Source: Rubrivivax sp. (lineage in GTDB: Bacteria; Pseudomonadota; Gammaproteobacteria; Burkholderiales; Burkholderiaceae_C). From it: a DNA stretch of 64,000 nucleotides. Within the stretch, counting starts at the first letter, position 1. Every line of letters starts with the position of its first letter. Of the stretch, positions 5,854-61,037 are shown one piece after another. Where the stretch lies: NCBI GenBank assembly GCA_044226255.1, contig JBGAHJ010000013.1, positions 67,313 to 131,312 of the forward strand, in the 5' to 3' direction. A program made the translations under genes and the position numbers. A model generated the notes under the pieces. It was not told the origin of the DNA, made no database searches, and worked only from the letters and a program-made list of their open reading frames with translations.

Positions 5854-6354
5854 ATGAATTCCGAACACACCGATTGGGAACGGCGTCTCTCGCAGCTGTG
5901 GGCGAAACTGGACGGCATGGAGGTGCCGGCGTTTCTTTCGCAGATGCGCCAGTTGACGTCGGAACGCGGCGATGGCGATCCGGCCGCCCTTTTCGAGATG
6001 GGCGCCGCGAACGATTCGACCGGCTTTCCCGAGAAGGCCGCGGTGCTGTACGAGCAAGCGCTGCAGGCGGGCCTGTCAGGCATCCGGCGGCGCAGGGCCA
6101 GGATCCAGATGGCCAGTTCGCTGCGCAACCTCGGGCAGGCGCAGCAGGCGGCGGCCATCCTGGCCGACGAGATGAAGCAGCCGTCGGATGAACTGGATCA
6201 GGCCGTCGCGGCCTTCCTGGCGCTGGCGCTCGCCGACCTGGGGCGCGAGCGCGAAGCGCTGGCCATCAGCCTGGGCGCACTCTCGACCTACCTGCCGCGC
6301 TACAACCGGTCGCTGGCCCGCTACGCCGAGGCGCTGCGGGCCGGGGACCGGTGA
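5854..6354 (+). CDS. Tetratricopeptide-repeat protein
   Basis: ALFEMGAANDSTG, RARIQMASSLRNLG, YLPRYNRSLARYA. Confidence 0.75.
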   Translation: MNSEHTDWERRLSQLWAKLDGMEVPAFLSQMRQLTSERGDGDPAALFEMGAANDSTGFPEKAAVLYEQALQAGLSGIRRRRARIQMASSLRNLGQAQQAAAILADEMKQPSDELDQAVAAFLALALADLGREREALAISLGALSTYLPRYNRSLARYAEALRAGDR

Positions 6355-6384
6355 CACGGCCCAGCTGCGCTGCGCTCGACGCTG

Positions 6385-6780
6385 TCACGCCGAGGCTTCG
6401 AGCGCGAAGCCCTCGTCGATCCAGCCGGTCACGCCGCCGGCCATGATCTTCACCGGACGGCCGAGCTTCGCCAGCCGCAGGGCACCGCGCGCGGCGCCAT
6501 TGCAATGGGGGCCGGCGCAGTAGGTCACGAACAAGGTGTCCTGGGGCCAGGCGCTCAGGGTCGATTCGACGATCTTGCCATGCGGCATGCTGATCGCACC
6601 CGCGATGTGCCCCTTGGCGTAGAGCGCGGGGCTGCGCACGTCCAGCAGGACGAAGTCAGGCCCCTTGCTCATGGCGTCGTTGACGTCCCAGCAGTCCGTC
6701 TCGAAGGTGAACTCGGCACTGAAATGGGCGACGGCCTCTGCGGATGGCGCCGCCGGGGTGGTGGAAACGGAACTGGGCAT
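6385..6780 (-). CDS. Rhodanese-like domain protein (type normally paired with FtrA)
   Basis: FETDCWDV, LLDVRSPALYAKGHIAGA, YCAGPHCNGA. Confidence 0.9.
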   Translation of the reverse strand: MPSSVSTTPAAPSAEAVAHFSAEFTFETDCWDVNDAMSKGPDFVLLDVRSPALYAKGHIAGAISMPHGKIVESTLSAWPQDTLFVTYCAGPHCNGAARGALRLAKLGRPVKIMAGGVTGWIDEGFALEASA

Positions 6781-6888
6781 CAGGGGCTCCCTGCACATGG
6801 AAGCCCGCATCTTTTTCTTCCGCCGCTCGGAGGACAAGGGCCGCCGGCGACGTTTGTCGACAAGATCGCGCCAGCCCGCGCGCCGCGC

Positions 6889-7527
6889 TCAGACGGCTCT
6901 GCGCGGCTCCAGGGCCAGGCGCACGGCCAGTGCGGCCAGCACCGTACCCATGACGCAGCGCTGCGCCGCCAGCCAGCGCGGGCTGCGCGAGAACCAGCCC
7001 GCGAGCCGCGCCGCCGACAACACGATGAGCAGGTTGACGCTGAAGCTCACGGCGATCTGCGTCACGCCCAGCTGCACGCTCTGCGCGAAGAGCGAACCAT
7101 GCCCCGGCGACACGAACTGGGGAAAGATGGCGAGGTAGAAGACGGCGATCTTCGGATTCAGCACGTTCGTCAGGAAGCCCATCAGGAACAGGCGCGTCGG
7201 CGGATCGGCCGGCAGATCCCGTGCTTCGAAAGGCGATCGGGCGCCCGGCCTGACGGCCTGCCAGGCCATGTAGAGCAGGTACAGCGCACCGGTCCACTTC
7301 AGCGGCTCGTAGGCCAGCGGCACGGCCATGAACAGGGCCGTCAGGCCCCCGGCCGCCGCCAGCATGTGCACGAGGAAACCAGCGACGACGCCGAGCAGGG
7401 ACACCACGCCGGCCCTGCGGCCCTGGCAGATGGAGCGCGAGACCAGGTAGATCATGTTCGGGCCCGGTGTCAGGACCATCACCAGCGCAGCACCGGCGAA
7501 CAGCAGGAGATCGGGAAGCGGCACCAT
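6889..7527 (-). CDS. LysE-family translocator
   Basis: LTPGPNMIY, GFLTNVLNPKIAVFYLAIFPQF; hydrophobic helices. Confidence 0.95.
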   Translation of the reverse strand: MVPLPDLLLFAGAALVMVLTPGPNMIYLVSRSICQGRRAGVVSLLGVVAGFLVHMLAAAGGLTALFMAVPLAYEPLKWTGALYLLYMAWQAVRPGARSPFEARDLPADPPTRLFLMGFLTNVLNPKIAVFYLAIFPQFVSPGHGSLFAQSVQLGVTQIAVSFSVNLLIVLSAARLAGWFSRSPRWLAAQRCVMGTVLAALAVRLALEPRRAV

Positions 7528-7754
7528 GGAACCCCGGGGGCGATGGGAAGAGTCGCTTCATTGTGGCGCGCCCCGGTCCGCTTCGCCTGGGCCCGCGGCC
7601 GGCATCTGGCGCGCCGGTGGCGCCAATCCGATGCCTGAGATTCGACATTCCCCACTCGGGCTCGTTCCTAAACTGCAAGGAGGCTCATGGTCTCCGCTGG
7701 CACATCCTGCAGCCGCGGCATGGGTTCCACCAACCACGACGAATGAAGCACCGA

Positions 7755-8723
7755 ATGAAACTGATGAAGACGATGACGCGACGCGGCGTCTCGCTGGTCA
7801 TGGCCATCCTTCTCGTCGCGCCCGCCTGGGCCGCGGCACCGCAGCAGAAAGGCCAGGCACCGGGCTTCCACCGCATGATGCTGGGCCGGTTCGAAGTCAC
7901 GGCGCTGCACGATGGCAGCATCGATCTGGAACCGGGCAAGCTGCTGACGAATTCACCGCCTGCCCGGATCGAAAAGGCCCTGCATGCCGAGTTGCAGGGC
8001 CCCGTGATCCCGGCCTCGGTCAATGCGTTCCTGATCAACACCGGCGAGAAGCTCGTCCTCATCGACAGCGGCACCGGGCCCAGCGGCGTCGTCGGCCCGA
8101 AGCTGGGCCAGCTGCTGCGCAACCTGGGCGCCGCGGGCTACACGCCCGAGCAGGTGGACGAGGTCTACCTCACCCACGTTCACCCCGACCACGTCGGCGG
8201 GCTGCTCACGACCTCGGGGATGGCGTTTCCCCAGGCGGTGATCCGCCTCGACCAGCGCGAGCTCAGGTACTGGACCGATGCCGGGCAGGCCAGGCTGGCG
8301 CCGGAAGCGCACCGCCCCTTCTTCGCGTTCGCAGGGTCTGCCCTCAAGCCCTACGCCGACGCCGGCCGTGTGAAGCCGTTTGACGGCAGCACCGAACTCA
8401 CGCCCGGCATCCGGGCGATTTCAGCAAACGGCCACACCCATGGTCACACGGTGTACCGGGTTGAATCGGTGGGGCGCCAACTGCTGGTGTGGGGCGACGT
8501 GATGCACGTCGGCGCGGTTCAGTTCCCGGAGCCGCAGGTCACGATCGTCTTCGACACCGATTCCCCGAAGGCCGCCCGGGCCCGAAGCAAGGTCTTCGCC
8601 GAAGCCGCGGCGGGCGGCGTGATCGTGGCCGCTGCCCACCAGCCCTTTCCGGGCCTCGGCCGGCTGGTGCGTGCGGGCAAGGGGTACCGGTTCGTGCCAT
8701 ACCCCTACGACGGCGAGAAGTAG
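7755..8723 (+). CDS. Secreted metallo-beta-lactamase-fold hydrolase (methyl-parathion hydrolase/lactonase-like); start uncertain (7743-7773)
   Basis: Signal peptide TRRGVSLVMAILLVAPAWA; THVHPDHVGG (HxHxDH); GHTHGH; WGDVMH; HQPFPG. Confidence 0.85.
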   Translation: MKLMKTMTRRGVSLVMAILLVAPAWAAAPQQKGQAPGFHRMMLGRFEVTALHDGSIDLEPGKLLTNSPPARIEKALHAELQGPVIPASVNAFLINTGEKLVLIDSGTGPSGVVGPKLGQLLRNLGAAGYTPEQVDEVYLTHVHPDHVGGLLTTSGMAFPQAVIRLDQRELRYWTDAGQARLAPEAHRPFFAFAGSALKPYADAGRVKPFDGSTELTPGIRAISANGHTHGHTVYRVESVGRQLLVWGDVMHVGAVQFPEPQVTIVFDTDSPKAARARSKVFAEAAAGGVIVAAAHQPFPGLGRLVRAGKGYRFVPYPYDGEK

Positions 8724-8740
8724 ACCGGGCCGCGCACCGC

Positions 8741-9652
8741 TCAACGGGCCGCCTGCTGCACCCGGTACCGGCTGGGCGAGCAGGCCATGATGCGCTTGAA
8801 GGCGCTGCTGAACGCGCTGTCGGAGTCGTAGCCCAGCCGCTCCGCGATGGCCGAGACCGTGCGGCCGCCCTGGCGCAGCTCCTGCGCGGCCAGCAGCATG
8901 CGCCAGCGCAGCACGTACTCGAGCGGGCCCATGGACATCTGCAGCTTGAAGCGCTGCGCGAAGGTCGAGCGAGACAGGCCCGCGACCTCGGCCAGTCCCT
9001 CGACGGACCAGCGCCGCTCGGGGTTGCCGTGAATGGCCTGCACGGCCGCCCGCAAGGGGGCATCGGACAACGCCCGCAACCAACCGGCGGCCAGCGGCGC
9101 GTCGGACGCGAGGTAGAGCCGCAGAAACTGCACCAGCATCATCTGCGCCAGGTTCTCGATCACGAGCGCCGCGCCGGGCGAAGGCTGTGCCAGCTCCTGG
9201 CCCAGCTGCTTCAGTGACCACTGCAGCACCTCGGCCCCGGGCGCACGGCCGCGCAGCATCGCCAGCGGCGGCAGGCCGTCCAGCAGCAGGCGCACCGGGT
9301 CGCTGAGGTCGAACCGTCCGCCGACCAGGAAGAACTCGTCGGCCGAACCCAGCCGCAGCACATGCTCCCTGGCCGTGCTGAAGAGAGCCGGCCCGTCAAG
9401 CGGCTCCACATCGGGGTGGCTGGCCAGCGTGTAGGTACCGGGGCGGCTGATGAGGTAGCTGTCGCCCGCCTGCACCTCGTGCCAGCCCGGCACACCATCG
9501 ACGGCCAGCCAGCATGAGCCGCTGAGGACGGCGTGGAACTTGATGCCGACCGGCGGCGGAAAGCGCACGGCCCACGATCCCGCGGCCTTGACGCCCGCGA
9601 AGAAGGAGTGCCGGGTGCCGAGCAGCGACAGCACCTGGGAAAGGGGGTCCAA
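8741..9652 (-). CDS. AraC-family regulator with cupin N-domain
   Basis: TTG start MDPLSQVL; WSVEGLAEVAGLSRSTFAQRF; LGYDSDSAFSSAFKR. Confidence 0.9.
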   Translation of the reverse strand: MDPLSQVLSLLGTRHSFFAGVKAAGSWAVRFPPPVGIKFHAVLSGSCWLAVDGVPGWHEVQAGDSYLISRPGTYTLASHPDVEPLDGPALFSTAREHVLRLGSADEFFLVGGRFDLSDPVRLLLDGLPPLAMLRGRAPGAEVLQWSLKQLGQELAQPSPGAALVIENLAQMMLVQFLRLYLASDAPLAAGWLRALSDAPLRAAVQAIHGNPERRWSVEGLAEVAGLSRSTFAQRFKLQMSMGPLEYVLRWRMLLAAQELRQGGRTVSAIAERLGYDSDSAFSSAFKRIMACSPSRYRVQQAAR

Positions 9653-9753
9653 CGGTTCTTCCGGACGATCGCGACAGGAAGCCGGACTCTAGGGCATTCA
9701 ATCCGCCGCGTGCCCTTTCCAGAATCTGCGCATCGCACATGAAGGACTTCTCG

Positions 9754-10815
9754 ATGCATCGTCGACGCGCCATCCAGACCTTGCTGTCGGCCGGCGGCCT
9801 TGCCGTGGCCGGCTGCGCACCGCCCGCCCGTCTGCCCGCGACGGACGGCCTGCGCGTGATGACCGTCAACGGCTGGATCGATGCCGCGGCACTCGGCGTC
9901 ACGCTGCCGCACGAACACCTGTTCGCGGATCTGAGGCCCCATGCCGAGCAGGCCGCCCAGCCGCTGAAGGTGGACATCGACGAGGCGGTGCAGGTCCTGC
10001 TGCCGCAGCTTCAGCGCGTGGCGCGCCACGGTTGCCGCAGCCTGGTGGAGTGCACCGCCACGAACCTGGGGCGGCACCCGCGGCTCATCCAGCGCCTCTC
10101 GCAGGCCAGCGGGCTGCACATGCTGACGGTCACGGGCGGCTATGCGGCGGCGGGGCGCCGCTTCGTGTCGGGCGAGCTGATGGCGCAGTCGGCAGACCAG
10201 CTGGCCGAGCGCTGGACACGCGAGTGGACCGAGGGCATCGACGGCAGCGGCATCCGCCCGGGCCTGATCAAGATCGGCGTTGACGAAGGTCCGCCCGAAG
10301 CACTGGAGACCCGGCTGCTGCAGGCGGCCGTGCAGACCCACCGCAACACCGGGCTCACGATCGCCTGCCACATCGGATCGTGGACCGAGAAGCACACCGA
10401 AGCCGGTCGCACCGCGATGCAGCAGCTGGCCGCGATCCGCCAGGCCGGCCTCAGCCCGTCGGCCTGGATCTGGGTGCATGCCCAGCACGAGGGCGACCTG
10501 CGGCAGCAGGTGTCGGTGGCCCGCGCAGGCGGATGGATCTCGTTCGACGACTTCCGCGAGGCGCAGCTTGCGCGTTATGTCGGCCTGCTGCAGACCCTGC
10601 GCCGGGAAGGTGTGCTGAACCGCGTGCTCGTTTCGCAGGACGCGGGCTGGTACACGGCCGGGCAGCCTCGCGGCGGCACGATCGCCCCCTACGAGCCGCT
10701 GTTCACCTCGCTGCTGCCGGCGCTGCGCGCGGCGGGTTTCTCCGAGGCGGAGATCCAGACCCTGGTCGTGACCAACCCCGCCCAGGCGCTGGCGGTGCGC
10801 GCGCGGGCGACCTAG
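9754..10815 (+). CDS. Phosphotriesterase-family amidohydrolase, predicted Tat lipoprotein (alternative start 9739)
   Basis: RRRAI twin-Arg plus AVAGC lipobox; TLPHEHL (HxH), GLIKIG (Lys), ACH, WVHAQ, VSQDAG. Confidence 0.9.
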   Translation: MHRRRAIQTLLSAGGLAVAGCAPPARLPATDGLRVMTVNGWIDAAALGVTLPHEHLFADLRPHAEQAAQPLKVDIDEAVQVLLPQLQRVARHGCRSLVECTATNLGRHPRLIQRLSQASGLHMLTVTGGYAAAGRRFVSGELMAQSADQLAERWTREWTEGIDGSGIRPGLIKIGVDEGPPEALETRLLQAAVQTHRNTGLTIACHIGSWTEKHTEAGRTAMQQLAAIRQAGLSPSAWIWVHAQHEGDLRQQVSVARAGGWISFDDFREAQLARYVGLLQTLRREGVLNRVLVSQDAGWYTAGQPRGGTIAPYEPLFTSLLPALRAAGFSEAEIQTLVVTNPAQALAVRARAT

Positions 10816-58088: not shown

Positions 58089-60053
58089 ATGCGCATCGCA
58101 CTGGTCCACATGCCATGGGGGGCGCTGGAACGCCCTGCACTCGGCGTCAGCCTGCTGAAGGCGGCCGCGCAGGGGCAGGGCGTTTCGTGCGAGCTGCGCT
58201 ACTGCAACATGCGCTTCGCCGAGCGCATCGGCGCCGAGCCCTACCGCCGCATCACCCACGATCTGCCGCACGTCGCCTTCGCCGGCGAATGGGTCTTCAC
58301 GGAGGCACTGTTCGGGTCCGACGCCCGGCGCGACGCCGGTTATGTCGACGAGGTGCTGCGCGGCGAGTGGCAACTGTCCGAGCCGCAGATCGGGGAACTG
58401 TTCGCGGCCCGCGCACAGGTCGAGGCCTACCTGGACGAACTGCTCGAGGACCCGTCTTGGCAGGACTTCGACCTCGTCGGCTTCACCTCGACCTTCGAGC
58501 AGAACATCGCCTCGCTGGCCCTGGCCCGCCGCATCCGGCTGCGTTGGCCGCATGTCCCGATCGCGTTCGGCGGCGCGAACTGGGAAGGGCCGATGGGCCA
58601 GGAGCTGCACCGGGCCTTCGACTGCGTCGACTTCGCCTTCTCCGGGGAAGCCGACATCGGCTTCCCCCGTCTGCTGCAGGCTCTGCAGCTCCCGCAGCCG
58701 GCCCGCCTGCAGCAGCTGCAGGCGATTCCCGGCCTGGTGTGGCGCCGTGACGGCGCCACCGTGTCCAACGGCCCGGCCGAGCCGGTGGAGGCGATGGACA
58801 GCCTGCCCACGCCCGACCTGTCCGACTACTTCGACGCGCGCGCGCGCAGCGCCGCGGCATCGCAGGTCTCGCCGGTGCTGCTGTTCGAGACGTCCCGCGG
58901 CTGCTGGTGGGGCGCCAAGTCGCACTGCACCTTCTGCGGCCTGAACGGGCACAGCATGGGCTACCGCAGCAAGTCGCCCGCGCGCGTGCTGGCCGAGCTG
59001 GGCGAGATGATCCGGCGCTGGCCCTGCCCCACGCTGGAGGCCGTCGACAACATCCTGGACATGAAGTACTTCGACAGCGTGCTGCCGGCGCTGGAGCAGA
59101 TGGACCTGCCGGGCCCGGTGTTCTACGAGGTCAAGGCCAACATGAAGCGCCACCACGTGGCGGCGCTGCGGCGCGCGCGCATCACGCGCATCCAGCCCGG
59201 CATCGAGAGTCTGAGCGACCACGTGCTGCAGCTGATGGCCAAGGGCACGACTGCGCTGCGCAACGTGCAGCTGCTGAAGTGGTGCCGCGAGTACGACGTG
59301 GCGGTGGACTGGAACCTGCTCTACGGCTTTCCCGGCGAGACCGATGCCGACTACCAGCAGATCGAGGACGTGCTGCGACGCATCGGGCATCTGCAGCTGC
59401 CGGGTGCCTGCGGCCCGATCCGGCTCGACCGCTTCAGCCCCTACTTCGAACGGCCCGCGGCCTATGGCCTGTTCAACGTCCGCCCTCTGCCGGTGTACCG
59501 TTGGATCTACCCGGTTCCCGGCCTGGACCACGCCCGTGTCGCCTACTACTTCCGCTTCGACCATCAAGCCGACCGGGCCCCGAGCCCGCGCGCCTTGCAG
59601 GCGGCCGCATTGGCGGAGTCCATGCGTGCCGCGCCGAACCCGGGCAGTCTCCAGGCGCTGCCGCACCGGGACGGCGGCCTGCACCTGGCCGACACGCGCC
59701 GCGGCGCCCGGACGTCGGCGCTGCGCCTGTCGCCGTTCGAGCGCTGCATCGTGATGGCCATCGACGAAACCGCCTCGCTGGACCAGGTGGTGCGCGCCTT
59801 GCAGCGGGCGTGGCCCGAGCACCGCTTCGACCCCGCTCAGGTGCGCGGCTTCCTGGACGAACTGGTGGCGCTGGACCTGGCCCTCAGCGACGGCCGCGGT
59901 CACTGGCTGGGCCTGGCATTGATGCCTGCGTCCCTGCGCGACGATCTGGAACGGCGCAGCCGGCGGAGCGAGCCGCGGCCGGTGGCCTTGCCGATCCAGG
60001 CGCAGGCCGTCGCGCCGTCGGGCCGCGACAGGGTCGGAGCGGCGCATGCCTGA
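58089..60053 (+). CDS. RiPP-maturation B12-dependent radical SAM C-methyltransferase (TIGR03975-type) with C-terminal RRE-like domain
   Basis: N-terminal cobalamin domain ([26 protein letters not shown]); [21 protein letters not shown] (Cx7Cx2C); IQPGIESLS; [10 protein letters not shown]. Confidence 0.9.
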
Positions 60054-60390
60054 AGCGCGCTACGCGGCCCAGGTGGTGCTCGCGGCAGGCCCGGGGGAAC
60101 TCGGCGGCGATGCCGTGGAGCGGGCGCGCCGCGGCTTCGAGGCCCTGGGCTTCCGCACCGGCGAGTGCGTGGGTGACAGCTTCAGCATCGAAGCCGGCGG
60201 CGAGCCCTTCCGGCACGCCTTCGGCGTGGCGCTGGCCCAGCGCGCCGACGGCGCGATGCACGTGCGCGGAGCGCCCGACCAACTGCTGCAGGCCTTGCCC
60301 CTGCAGGCGCTGCCGGCGAGCCTGCGCCAGCAGTTGCGCCACGTCGTGTTCTCGGCCCCGCCGGCCTTCGGGCCCGGTTCGTTCTCGTGA
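60046..60390 (+). CDS. 114-aa protein resembling the subtilase propeptide
   Basis: 8-nt overlap with the rSAM stop; RARRGFEALGF...SFSIEAGGEPFRHAFG aligns by eye to [11 protein letters not shown]...[16 protein letters not shown] of the S8. Confidence 0.7.
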   Translation: MPEARYAAQVVLAAGPGELGGDAVERARRGFEALGFRTGECVGDSFSIEAGGEPFRHAFGVALAQRADGAMHVRGAPDQLLQALPLQALPASLRQQLRHVVFSAPPAFGPGSFS

Positions 60391-61037
60391 GCTGCTGCCC
60401 GCGCTGCGAACTCGAGCGCGAGCTGGCACGGCTGCGGCGCTCGGCGCTGCTGCGGGGCGGGGGCTACGGCATCTGCCGCGGCCTGATCGAACCCGCCTGG
60501 ATCGAGGCGATGCGTCTGGAGGCCCTGAGGGGCGCCCGGCGGCATGACGAACTCGGCGCGGGCAACGACATCGAAGCGGTGCGGGGCGGCACCCCGGCAC
60601 GCAGCCTGATCAGCGTCGAGGGCGGTCCGGTCCAGGACACGCTGGTCGCCCATCCCGCGCTGATGGCCTACGTGTCCGGACTCGTCGGCCTGCCGGTGCG
60701 CCCGTGCGGGCAGCGGGCAAGCTACTCGATCTATGCCGGGCCGCAGGCGCACCTGGACATCCACCGCGACATCGTCGGCTGCGATCTGGCCCTGATCACC
60801 TGCCTGCAGGACGACCGGCCCGATGCCGCCGGCGGGGCGCTCGATGTCTGGCTGGACGACCTGGCGACGCCGTTGTCGGACCTGCGCGCCGCCCCGGAAC
60901 GCGGCCGCCGGCGCTTGGCCCTGGCGCCGGGCGAGACGCTGCTGCTGCACGGCGGCCTGGTGCCGCACCGCGTGCCGCCGGCCGGGCAGGAGCGTCTGCG
61001 CGTGGTTTCGCTGGCGTGCCTGGAGGTGCTGGCCTGA
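60387..61037 (+). CDS. 2-oxoglutarate/Fe(II)-dependent oxygenase
   Basis: GTGA overlap; LDIHRD (HxD), LVPHRV (His), RVVSL (Arg); DSBH-like strand pattern. Confidence 0.75.
   Translation: MSCCPRCELERELARLRRSALLRGGGYGICRGLIEPAWIEAMRLEALRGARRHDELGAGNDIEAVRGGTPARSLISVEGGPVQDTLVAHPALMAYVSGLVGLPVRPCGQRASYSIYAGPQAHLDIHRDIVGCDLALITCLQDDRPDAAGGALDVWLDDLATPLSDLRAAPERGRRRLALAPGETLLLHGGLVPHRVPPAGQERLRVVSLACLEVLA

Follow-up and report, generated by a model that had tools for sequence, protein, structure and literature searches.

A probable PoyB/PoyC-type radical SAM enzyme with a predicted C-terminal PqqD-like domain, encoded beside a repeat-tailed S8 protease in Rubrivivax

The radical SAM gene and its operon

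The gene considered here lies in a 64,000-nucleotide (nt) stretch of a Rubrivivax sp. genome (assembly GCA_044226255.1, contig JBGAHJ010000013.1, positions 67,313 to 131,312; hereafter the window, numbered from its first nucleotide) and encodes a radical S-adenosylmethionine (SAM) protein of 654 amino acids (aa). Its open reading frame (ORF) occupies 58089-60053 on the + strand, as do the neighbouring genes described below unless otherwise stated; the translation is stop-free, and we take the ORF to be a real gene because of its codon-position GC pattern (0.71/0.53/0.91, in a window of 72.5% GC). The product is very probably a cobalamin-dependent (class B) radical SAM enzyme that C-methylates peptides, a member of the PoyB/PoyC family (TIGR03975), built from a B12-binding Rossmann domain, a core with a Cx7Cx2C cluster motif and a C-terminal PqqD-like recognition element for RiPPs (peptides that are made by the ribosome and modified after translation), or RRE.

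Directly upstream, at 56222-58072, lies the gene for a 616-aa S8 subtilase (Pfam Peptidase_S8, E 3.5e-22), our candidate for the protein that carries the substrate. Motifs surrounding the expected catalytic Asp, His and Ser, and the oxyanion Asn, are present in its sequence. The protease continues into a C-terminal tail: a regular-expression search located 23 consecutive (Val/Ile)-X-Pro units at residues 506-574 (57737-57943), a candidate core peptide, which are followed by an acidic linker and by a conserved, acidic, follower-like motif at residues 595-608 (58004-58045), starting 22 residues from the C-terminus.

The S8 stop codon and the ATG of the radical SAM gene are 16 nt apart, and the radical SAM stop overlaps the start of the next gene in ATGCCTGA (60046-60053); S8, radical SAM and this next gene therefore form one operon. 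The overlap also suggests translational coupling. The third gene (60046-60390) encodes a 114-aa protein that matches nothing in Pfam or NCBIfam, and a fourth (60387-61037) starts within its final codons. From its sequence, the 216-aa product of the fourth is a probable 2-oxoglutarate (2OG)-Fe(II) oxygenase, with a weak match to Pfam 2OG-FeII_Oxy_3 (E 0.0029) that falls below the cut-off.

The enzyme is sparsely distributed around its host. A close homologue (E <= 1e-40) turned up in one of 24 genomes of the same genus, at 37% identity, whereas 16 genomes drawn from other families in that order had none. Its nearest relatives, at 67% and 61% identity, come from an alphaproteobacterial metagenome-assembled genome (MAG) and a Steroidobacter MAG. 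The cassette is accessory and was probably acquired horizontally. The Rubrivivax genome, 99.94% complete, holds a single TIGR03975 gene.

Cluster motif and recognition domain of the enzyme

The enzyme matched TIGR03975 ("RiPP maturation radical SAM C-methyltransferase") with E 1.3e-189 and 631.6 bits, the cut-off being 281.85, in an alignment of residues 3-610 to profile positions 1-605 of 606. Since this match reaches the end of the profile, the C-terminal domain belongs to the family model and is no add-on. The family is very large, with 3,246 clusters at E <= 1e-30 in an exhaustive profile search. The radical SAM core spans residues 267-426 (58887-59366; PF04055, E 3e-12). The N-terminal cobalamin-binding domain, a Rossmann-like fold of about residues 1-230 (58089-58778), gave a weak Pfam B12-binding match below the cut-off (E 0.0026). 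The full-length AlphaFold2 (AF2) model had a mean predicted local distance difference test score (pLDDT) of 94 and a predicted template modelling score (pTM) of 0.91, and Foldseek aligned it with OxsB, TokK, TsrM, CysS and MgmA over ~500-600 columns (E 4e-14 to 3e-11), so that at the level of the predicted fold the enzyme has the cobalamin domain of class B radical SAM proteins. At the sequence level the whole protein reached only distant class B enzymes among PDB chains, at E 1e-4 or weaker, and neither the PDB sequence search nor Foldseek found a solved structure for a TIGR03975 member. By analogy with its relatives, the expected chemistry of the enzyme would be methyl transfer to an unactivated peptide carbon.

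The [4Fe-4S] cluster motif comprises C272, C280 and C283 (residues 272-283; 58902-58937), which are invariant in a 58-sequence alignment. The original prediction had called this Cx7Cx2C motif atypical; its presence is plain, and yet the same motif stands as CWWGxxxHCTFC in 151 of 151 proteins (the query and its 150 best relatives), and judged from these sequences it is atypical only against the generic CX3CX2C of the superfamily, being the rule inside TIGR03975. It has been published as the unconventional motif shared by PoyB/PoyC and the bottromycin methyltransferases (PMC5682303, PMC11285071), and is also carried by MpcB of the clavusporin pathway (bioRxiv 10.1101/2024.01.23.576971).

The C-terminal ~85 aa had likewise been read, from a succession of strands and then three helices, as an RRE/PqqD-like domain, a reading that was borne out by AF2 and hhalign. 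The strings GLHLADTR and ALRLS lie at residues 530-537 and 544-548, and three further segments quoted for the domain at 549-559, 563-572 and 584-597; AF2 models place the five as strand, strand, helix, helix and helix of a beta3-alpha3 domain. The model of the domain alone (pLDDT 95.2) consists of one helix, three strands, three helices and a hairpin, with strands at positions 22-26, 32-36 and 45-48 of the model and helices at 50-58, 65-75 and 83-95. The full-length model gives the same order, which is that of the strict secondary-structure definition of an RRE (PMC12710340). We delimit the domain to about residues 519-611 (59643-59921), where the sequence profiles and the models support a predicted PqqD-like RRE of three strands, three helices and a beta-hairpin. 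It is not the extreme C-terminus of the protein: the hairpin, at 598-608, is followed by a terminal helix (614-626) and a tail (together 59928-60050) whose residues 632-654 are modelled as disordered, with pLDDT below 50.

For the profile comparison we took residues 500-618 of the query together with the corresponding regions of 80 relatives, retrieved from their genomes, 81 domains in all, and built a PqqD profile from 17 domains found in related genomes. hhalign matched the two over 77-78 columns, with probabilities of 96.5-96.8% and E-values between 2e-10 and 8.5e-10, whereas a reversed PqqD alignment gave 0.5%, eight column-shuffled versions 0.1-0.2%, and a Fur winged-helix alignment 11.8% over only 40 columns. 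The signal held within the query's own 19-sequence subclade (96.2%) and in the remainder of the family (96.3%). At its best value (96.8%, E 2e-10), and with negative controls, the domain therefore passed the comparison with PqqD profiles that the original prediction had proposed as its check. Single domains gave scattered Pfam matches: 14 of 81 matched PqqD (best E 4e-5), three of 81 matched DUF5825 (best E 1.3e-4), and the query's own domain matched the leader-binding region of Lant_dehydr_N (E 0.0045). Compared with PDB sequences, the C-terminal profile found nothing significant, PqqD entries appearing only at E 0.5-1.

A VIA-align structure search over 48,161 PDB representatives placed a leader-bound lasso RRE, TbiB1 (5v1u_A), at the top of the list, with Z 9.4 and a root-mean-square deviation of 2.4 A over 78 of 84 residues; another lasso B1 protein (6jx3, Z 8.3) ranked third, and the radical SAM RiPP enzyme TigE aligned across its residues 12-86 with Z 7.4. 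The three N-terminal strands of the domain aligned with RRE structures only. Restricting VIA-align to Foldseek's list brought no gain over the wide search. The structural match is modestly above the winged-helix background, so the fold is supportive of an RRE, and the profile evidence is decisive.

Neither feature is new to this group of enzymes. In the RRE-Finder paper (PMC7470986), PoyB, PoyC and BmbB/F/J appear in the supplement with RREs "fused to rSAM methyltransferase", and proteusins serve in the text as the example of C-terminal RRE fusions; a later compendium counts a "PoyB group" among the six largest RRE-associated radical SAM groups that contain a characterised enzyme (PMC10288494). 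The motif and the fused RRE are the already published signature of PoyB/PoyC-type enzymes, which the earlier observations rediscover. Separately, PqqD-type domains were also seen within long frames (772 and 715 aa) in a same-genus genome (G015:C4:187815-187988) and a same-order genome (G027:C5:65861-66016); these are other RRE fusions, unrelated to the radical SAM enzyme considered here.

The protease tail and its conserved neighbourhood

In a tree of 81 family members the query fell within a 19-member clade with 100% support. One of these 19 loci is cut by a contig end and was left out of the count of upstream genes; in 16 of the other 18 (the window and 15 related loci) an S8 gene lies directly upstream of the radical SAM gene, and 13 of the 16 proteases (the window and 12 related loci) bear a (Val/Ile)-X-Pro tail. 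Eleven tails (the window and ten loci) contain the acidic motif, [LIM][ST]x[ED][DE][VIM]xxL[EQS][ED][LMI][VI], starting 20-24 residues from the C-terminus, and these eleven span Pseudomonadota, Acidobacteriota, Planctomycetota and Actinomycetota; an Actinomadura locus (L016) has a variant only. Homologues of the 114-aa protein were found in 11 loci by tblastn and in two more (L019, L021) by inspection, and with these two the protein is present in every assessable locus with a motif-bearing S8. Homologues of the 216-aa oxygenase occur in 13 loci, including two that have no S8 (L053 and L024).

The first of these, from an acidobacterial MAG (L053), is informative. Its radical SAM gene, with an intact RRE (7992-9836), and its oxygenase gene (9845-10516) directly follow a gene for a 549-aa, BNR/Asp-box-like non-protease (6323-7972, + strand) that ends in 19 (Ile/Val)-X-Pro units and a basic tail. 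The repeat tail can therefore pass from one carrier protein to another. Taken together with the distribution of the 114-aa protein, this arrangement indicates that the radical SAM enzyme and the oxygenase travel with the repeats, and the 114-aa protein with the motif-bearing protease tail.

Elsewhere in the family, most TIGR03975 members adjoin small precursors, Nif11-like or Cys-rich and leader-bearing. Several other arrangements were seen upstream of related radical SAM genes. In a Nitrospinaceae locus (L030) a 495-codon frame (6100-7587, + strand) combines a coiled-coil-like N-terminus with an extended array of (Val/Ile)-Thr-Arg-Pro tetrapeptide repeats, and may encode another repeat substrate of different period. 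In loci from Acidobacteriota and Paracoccus (L037, L039, L046, L051, L054, L060 and L061), three-part precursor ORFs end just upstream of the radical SAM gene: the conserved leader is helical (AELEDKLSKVHITEEEMKAYxKV), the core is a repeat rich in Cys, Ile and Val (CTIRACTIRAC, for instance), and the end is rich in Gly and Phe; the leader motif is loosely similar to the acidic C-terminal motif of the S8 tails. Two 'Candidatus Angelobacter' loci (L034:4232-4930 and L047:1-300) have tandem modules of ~30 residues (…ARPIVEVVAEVQTPAFADGDR…), with the look of a multi-core precursor. Finally, an Anaerolineales locus (L031) holds two tandem TIGR03975 paralogues, each with a C-terminal RRE-like end, as in the PoyB/PoyC pair; the frame of the first ends at 7954 and the second radical SAM gene lies at 8001.

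Candidate substrates and known pathways

The original prediction had placed a peptide substrate of the enzyme nearby. This fits the family and the conserved neighbourhood, with the S8 tail as the favoured candidate: somewhat more probably than otherwise, in our judgement, the substrate is the C-terminal tail of the upstream protease with its 23 (Val/Ile)-X-Pro units, acidic linker and terminal motif. The RRE would then dock a recognition sequence of this ribosomally made substrate while the catalytic domains add methyl groups repeatedly to unactivated side-chain carbons, which by analogy with PoyC and MpcB would be the C-beta of Val and Ile and possibly Pro; in each round a 5'-deoxyadenosyl radical would abstract a hydrogen, and methylcobalamin would then give the methyl. 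Within the tail, the RRE could read the repeats, the stretch that joins them to the protease, or the acidic motif at the end; a Pro-rich recognition sequence of an RRE has been shown experimentally (PMC12710340). The acidic motif as a necessary ligand was weakened by the acidobacterial locus L053, which has repeats, radical SAM enzyme and oxygenase without it; as far as sequences can tell, that locus favours the repeats or the junction without settling the matter. In its fullest form the proposal is tentative, and we put it at a little under an even chance: the fused RRE would read the Pro-rich repeats or the acidic follower-like motif on the tail of a full-size cytoplasmic S8 protease, and the tail would be a protein-borne RiPP core, hyper-methylated, probably hydroxylated, and excised by its own carrier, giving a clavusporin- or polytheonamide-like hydrophobic peptide from an undescribed precursor architecture.

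Several observations weigh against this proposal, and some of them lend themselves to other explanations. The S8-radical SAM pair persists in two Nonomuraea loci (L014, L018) whose S8 stops at the end of its catalytic domain, and in L016, where the tail is Pro-rich but has no (Val/Ile)-X-Pro repeats; two further loci (L022, L023) have no S8 nearby, and L053 lacks the acidic motif, and with it the 114-aa protein, making the motif dispensable where radical SAM enzyme and repeats co-occur. It follows that the tail cannot serve every member of the subclade as substrate. The five loci other than L053 are possibly remnants; alternatively, their enzyme may act on something else. Such a target could lie elsewhere in S8 or be a different protein, with a single residue or a few changed, as methyl-coenzyme M reductase is by Mmp10 or by the glutamine methylase MgmA/QCMT, and MgmA is indeed among the structural neighbours of the enzyme model. 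We consider this unlikely for the window: the repeat tail of L053 recurs with radical SAM enzyme and oxygenase on a carrier other than S8, related branches of the family adjoin other repeat or leader-bearing precursors, and L014, L016 and L018 also lack both the oxygenase and the 114-aa protein, as decaying remnants might. (In L014 and L016 there is also another subtilase-like gene, transcribed divergently, as well as a regulator of the LuxR type.) A separate small precursor, as most TIGR03975 members elsewhere have, is more doubtful still. The 80-aa ORF at 50484-50726, named by the original prediction as a candidate, was rejected as a precursor: none of the 80 related loci has a homologue, and the ORF sits on the opposite strand at a distance of 7.4 kb, past a DEAD-box helicase gene and in a different operon. 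A 368-aa neighbour also had no match in those 80 loci, and neither the spacer upstream of S8 nor the short one after the oxygenase gene contains a short conserved ORF. Leaders of the nitrile hydratase-like (NHLP, TIGR03793) and Nif11 (TIGR03798) types were absent above cut-off from the genome, the best E-values (0.73 and 0.18) falling inside long unrelated frames, and canonical proteusin precursors are therefore removed as substrates.

The recognition domain itself raises two other doubts. PoyC was able to methylate a synthetic peptide whose design followed the sequence of polytheonamide A (PMC5682303), and DscE, a related B12-dependent radical SAM enzyme, methylates a finished nonribosomal peptide (PMC12858407), so that the presence of an RRE is no proof of leader dependence. 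The domain could accordingly be a structural or scaffolding remnant in an enzyme that chooses its substrate without docking a leader or follower, and it is kept in the subclade members whose S8 is tail-less. Yet it is conserved family-wide, the TIGR03975 model covering it to its end, it retains the strict RRE topology at very high model confidence, and clavusporin activity requires both a leader and the RRE-like partner MpcC; we regard a remnant as improbable. A nonribosomal substrate of the DscE type was rejected for this genome, where no condensation domain of a nonribosomal peptide synthetase was found. The other doubt concerns the fold. The query's own domain has no PqqD match in Pfam, where only the family profile reaches PqqD; Foldseek on the domain model returned nothing at E <= 0.001, listing generic winged helices with TbiB1 at rank 17; and in VIA-align many winged-helix regulators of Fur, MecI/BlaI and PadR types stand close behind TbiB1 at Z 7-8.5, with Fur and RosR-type matches at 7.5-8.5. 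That the domain is a DNA-binding winged helix through which the enzyme would regulate itself is nevertheless scarcely credible, given 11.8% over 40 columns for the Fur profile versus 96.8% over 77 for PqqD, N-terminal strands that find their counterparts in RREs, and fusion to an enzyme family already catalogued as RRE-bearing.

If the S8 tail is the substrate, the closest characterised functional analogue of the system is the clavusporin (mpc) pathway, and the window has the same ingredients, rearranged. There, MpcB works with MpcC, an RRE-like protein of the DUF5825 type, and the two place as many as eight C-beta methyls on Val, Ile, Thr and Pro of MpcA, whose 13-residue hydrophobic core is followed by an acidic follower, and a cluster-encoded S9 peptidase processes MpcA (bioRxiv 10.1101/2024.01.23.576971). 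Both systems combine a hydrophobic Val/Ile/Thr/Pro-rich core, in the window a candidate one, and an acidic follower-like end with an encoded protease and a Cx7Cx2C radical SAM enzyme; three of the family's C-terminal domains also match DUF5825. They differ in that the recognition domain is fused to the window enzyme, whereas MpcC is separate; in that the window protease is of type S8 and would carry the core itself, the mpc protease being S9; in the strict triplet repeat of 23 units; and in their range, the window cassette occurring in several phyla and mpc being confined to actinomycetes. Nor does the window contain an mpc-type cluster as such, since the 114-aa and 216-aa neighbours have no DUF5825 match and the search for a conserved small precursor found none; no major facilitator superfamily (MFS) exporter was identified among those genes of the operon that were examined.

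With PoyB and PoyC of the polytheonamide (proteusin) pathway, the enzyme shares the B12 domain, the radical SAM core, Cx7Cx2C and the fused RRE, and repeated C-beta methylation of Val and Ile would be expected by analogy. It differs from them in its setting: the genome lacks a nitrile-hydratase-like or Nif11 leader and hence a precursor of the proteusin kind, no epimerase was seen among the operon genes examined, and the place of a free precursor would be taken by the tail of the 616-aa protease. Its recognition domain resembles PqqD, TbiB1 and the lasso B1 proteins in profile (96.8%) and in structure (TbiB1, Z 9.4 over 78 of 84 residues), and is set apart from them by its C-terminal fusion, by an additional beta-hairpin plus helix following helix 3, and by an Asp-x-Arg, invariant and specific to the family, with which strand 2 ends. 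Borosin precursors such as OphMA, in which an enzyme bears the core peptide at its own C-terminus, resemble the window in the position of the candidate core on a large enzyme; the carrier there is the modifying methyltransferase itself, whereas here a protease would be the carrier, distinct from the enzymes that modify it.

The cluster motif and the RRE add nothing new on their own, both being known for the family, and the only unusual point is that the likely substrate is the repeat tail of the adjoining protease. Of interest is the segment of that tail to which the RRE would dock. The delimited domain, residues 519-611, offers a small, expressible handle for finding the ligand of the enzyme, and conservation of the gene neighbourhood leaves three short segments of a single protein tail as candidates. 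Should that tail indeed be the substrate, the locus would be a bacterial case of a RiPP core borne on a protease, and these cassettes would be a new source of heavily C-methylated, Pro-rich peptides.

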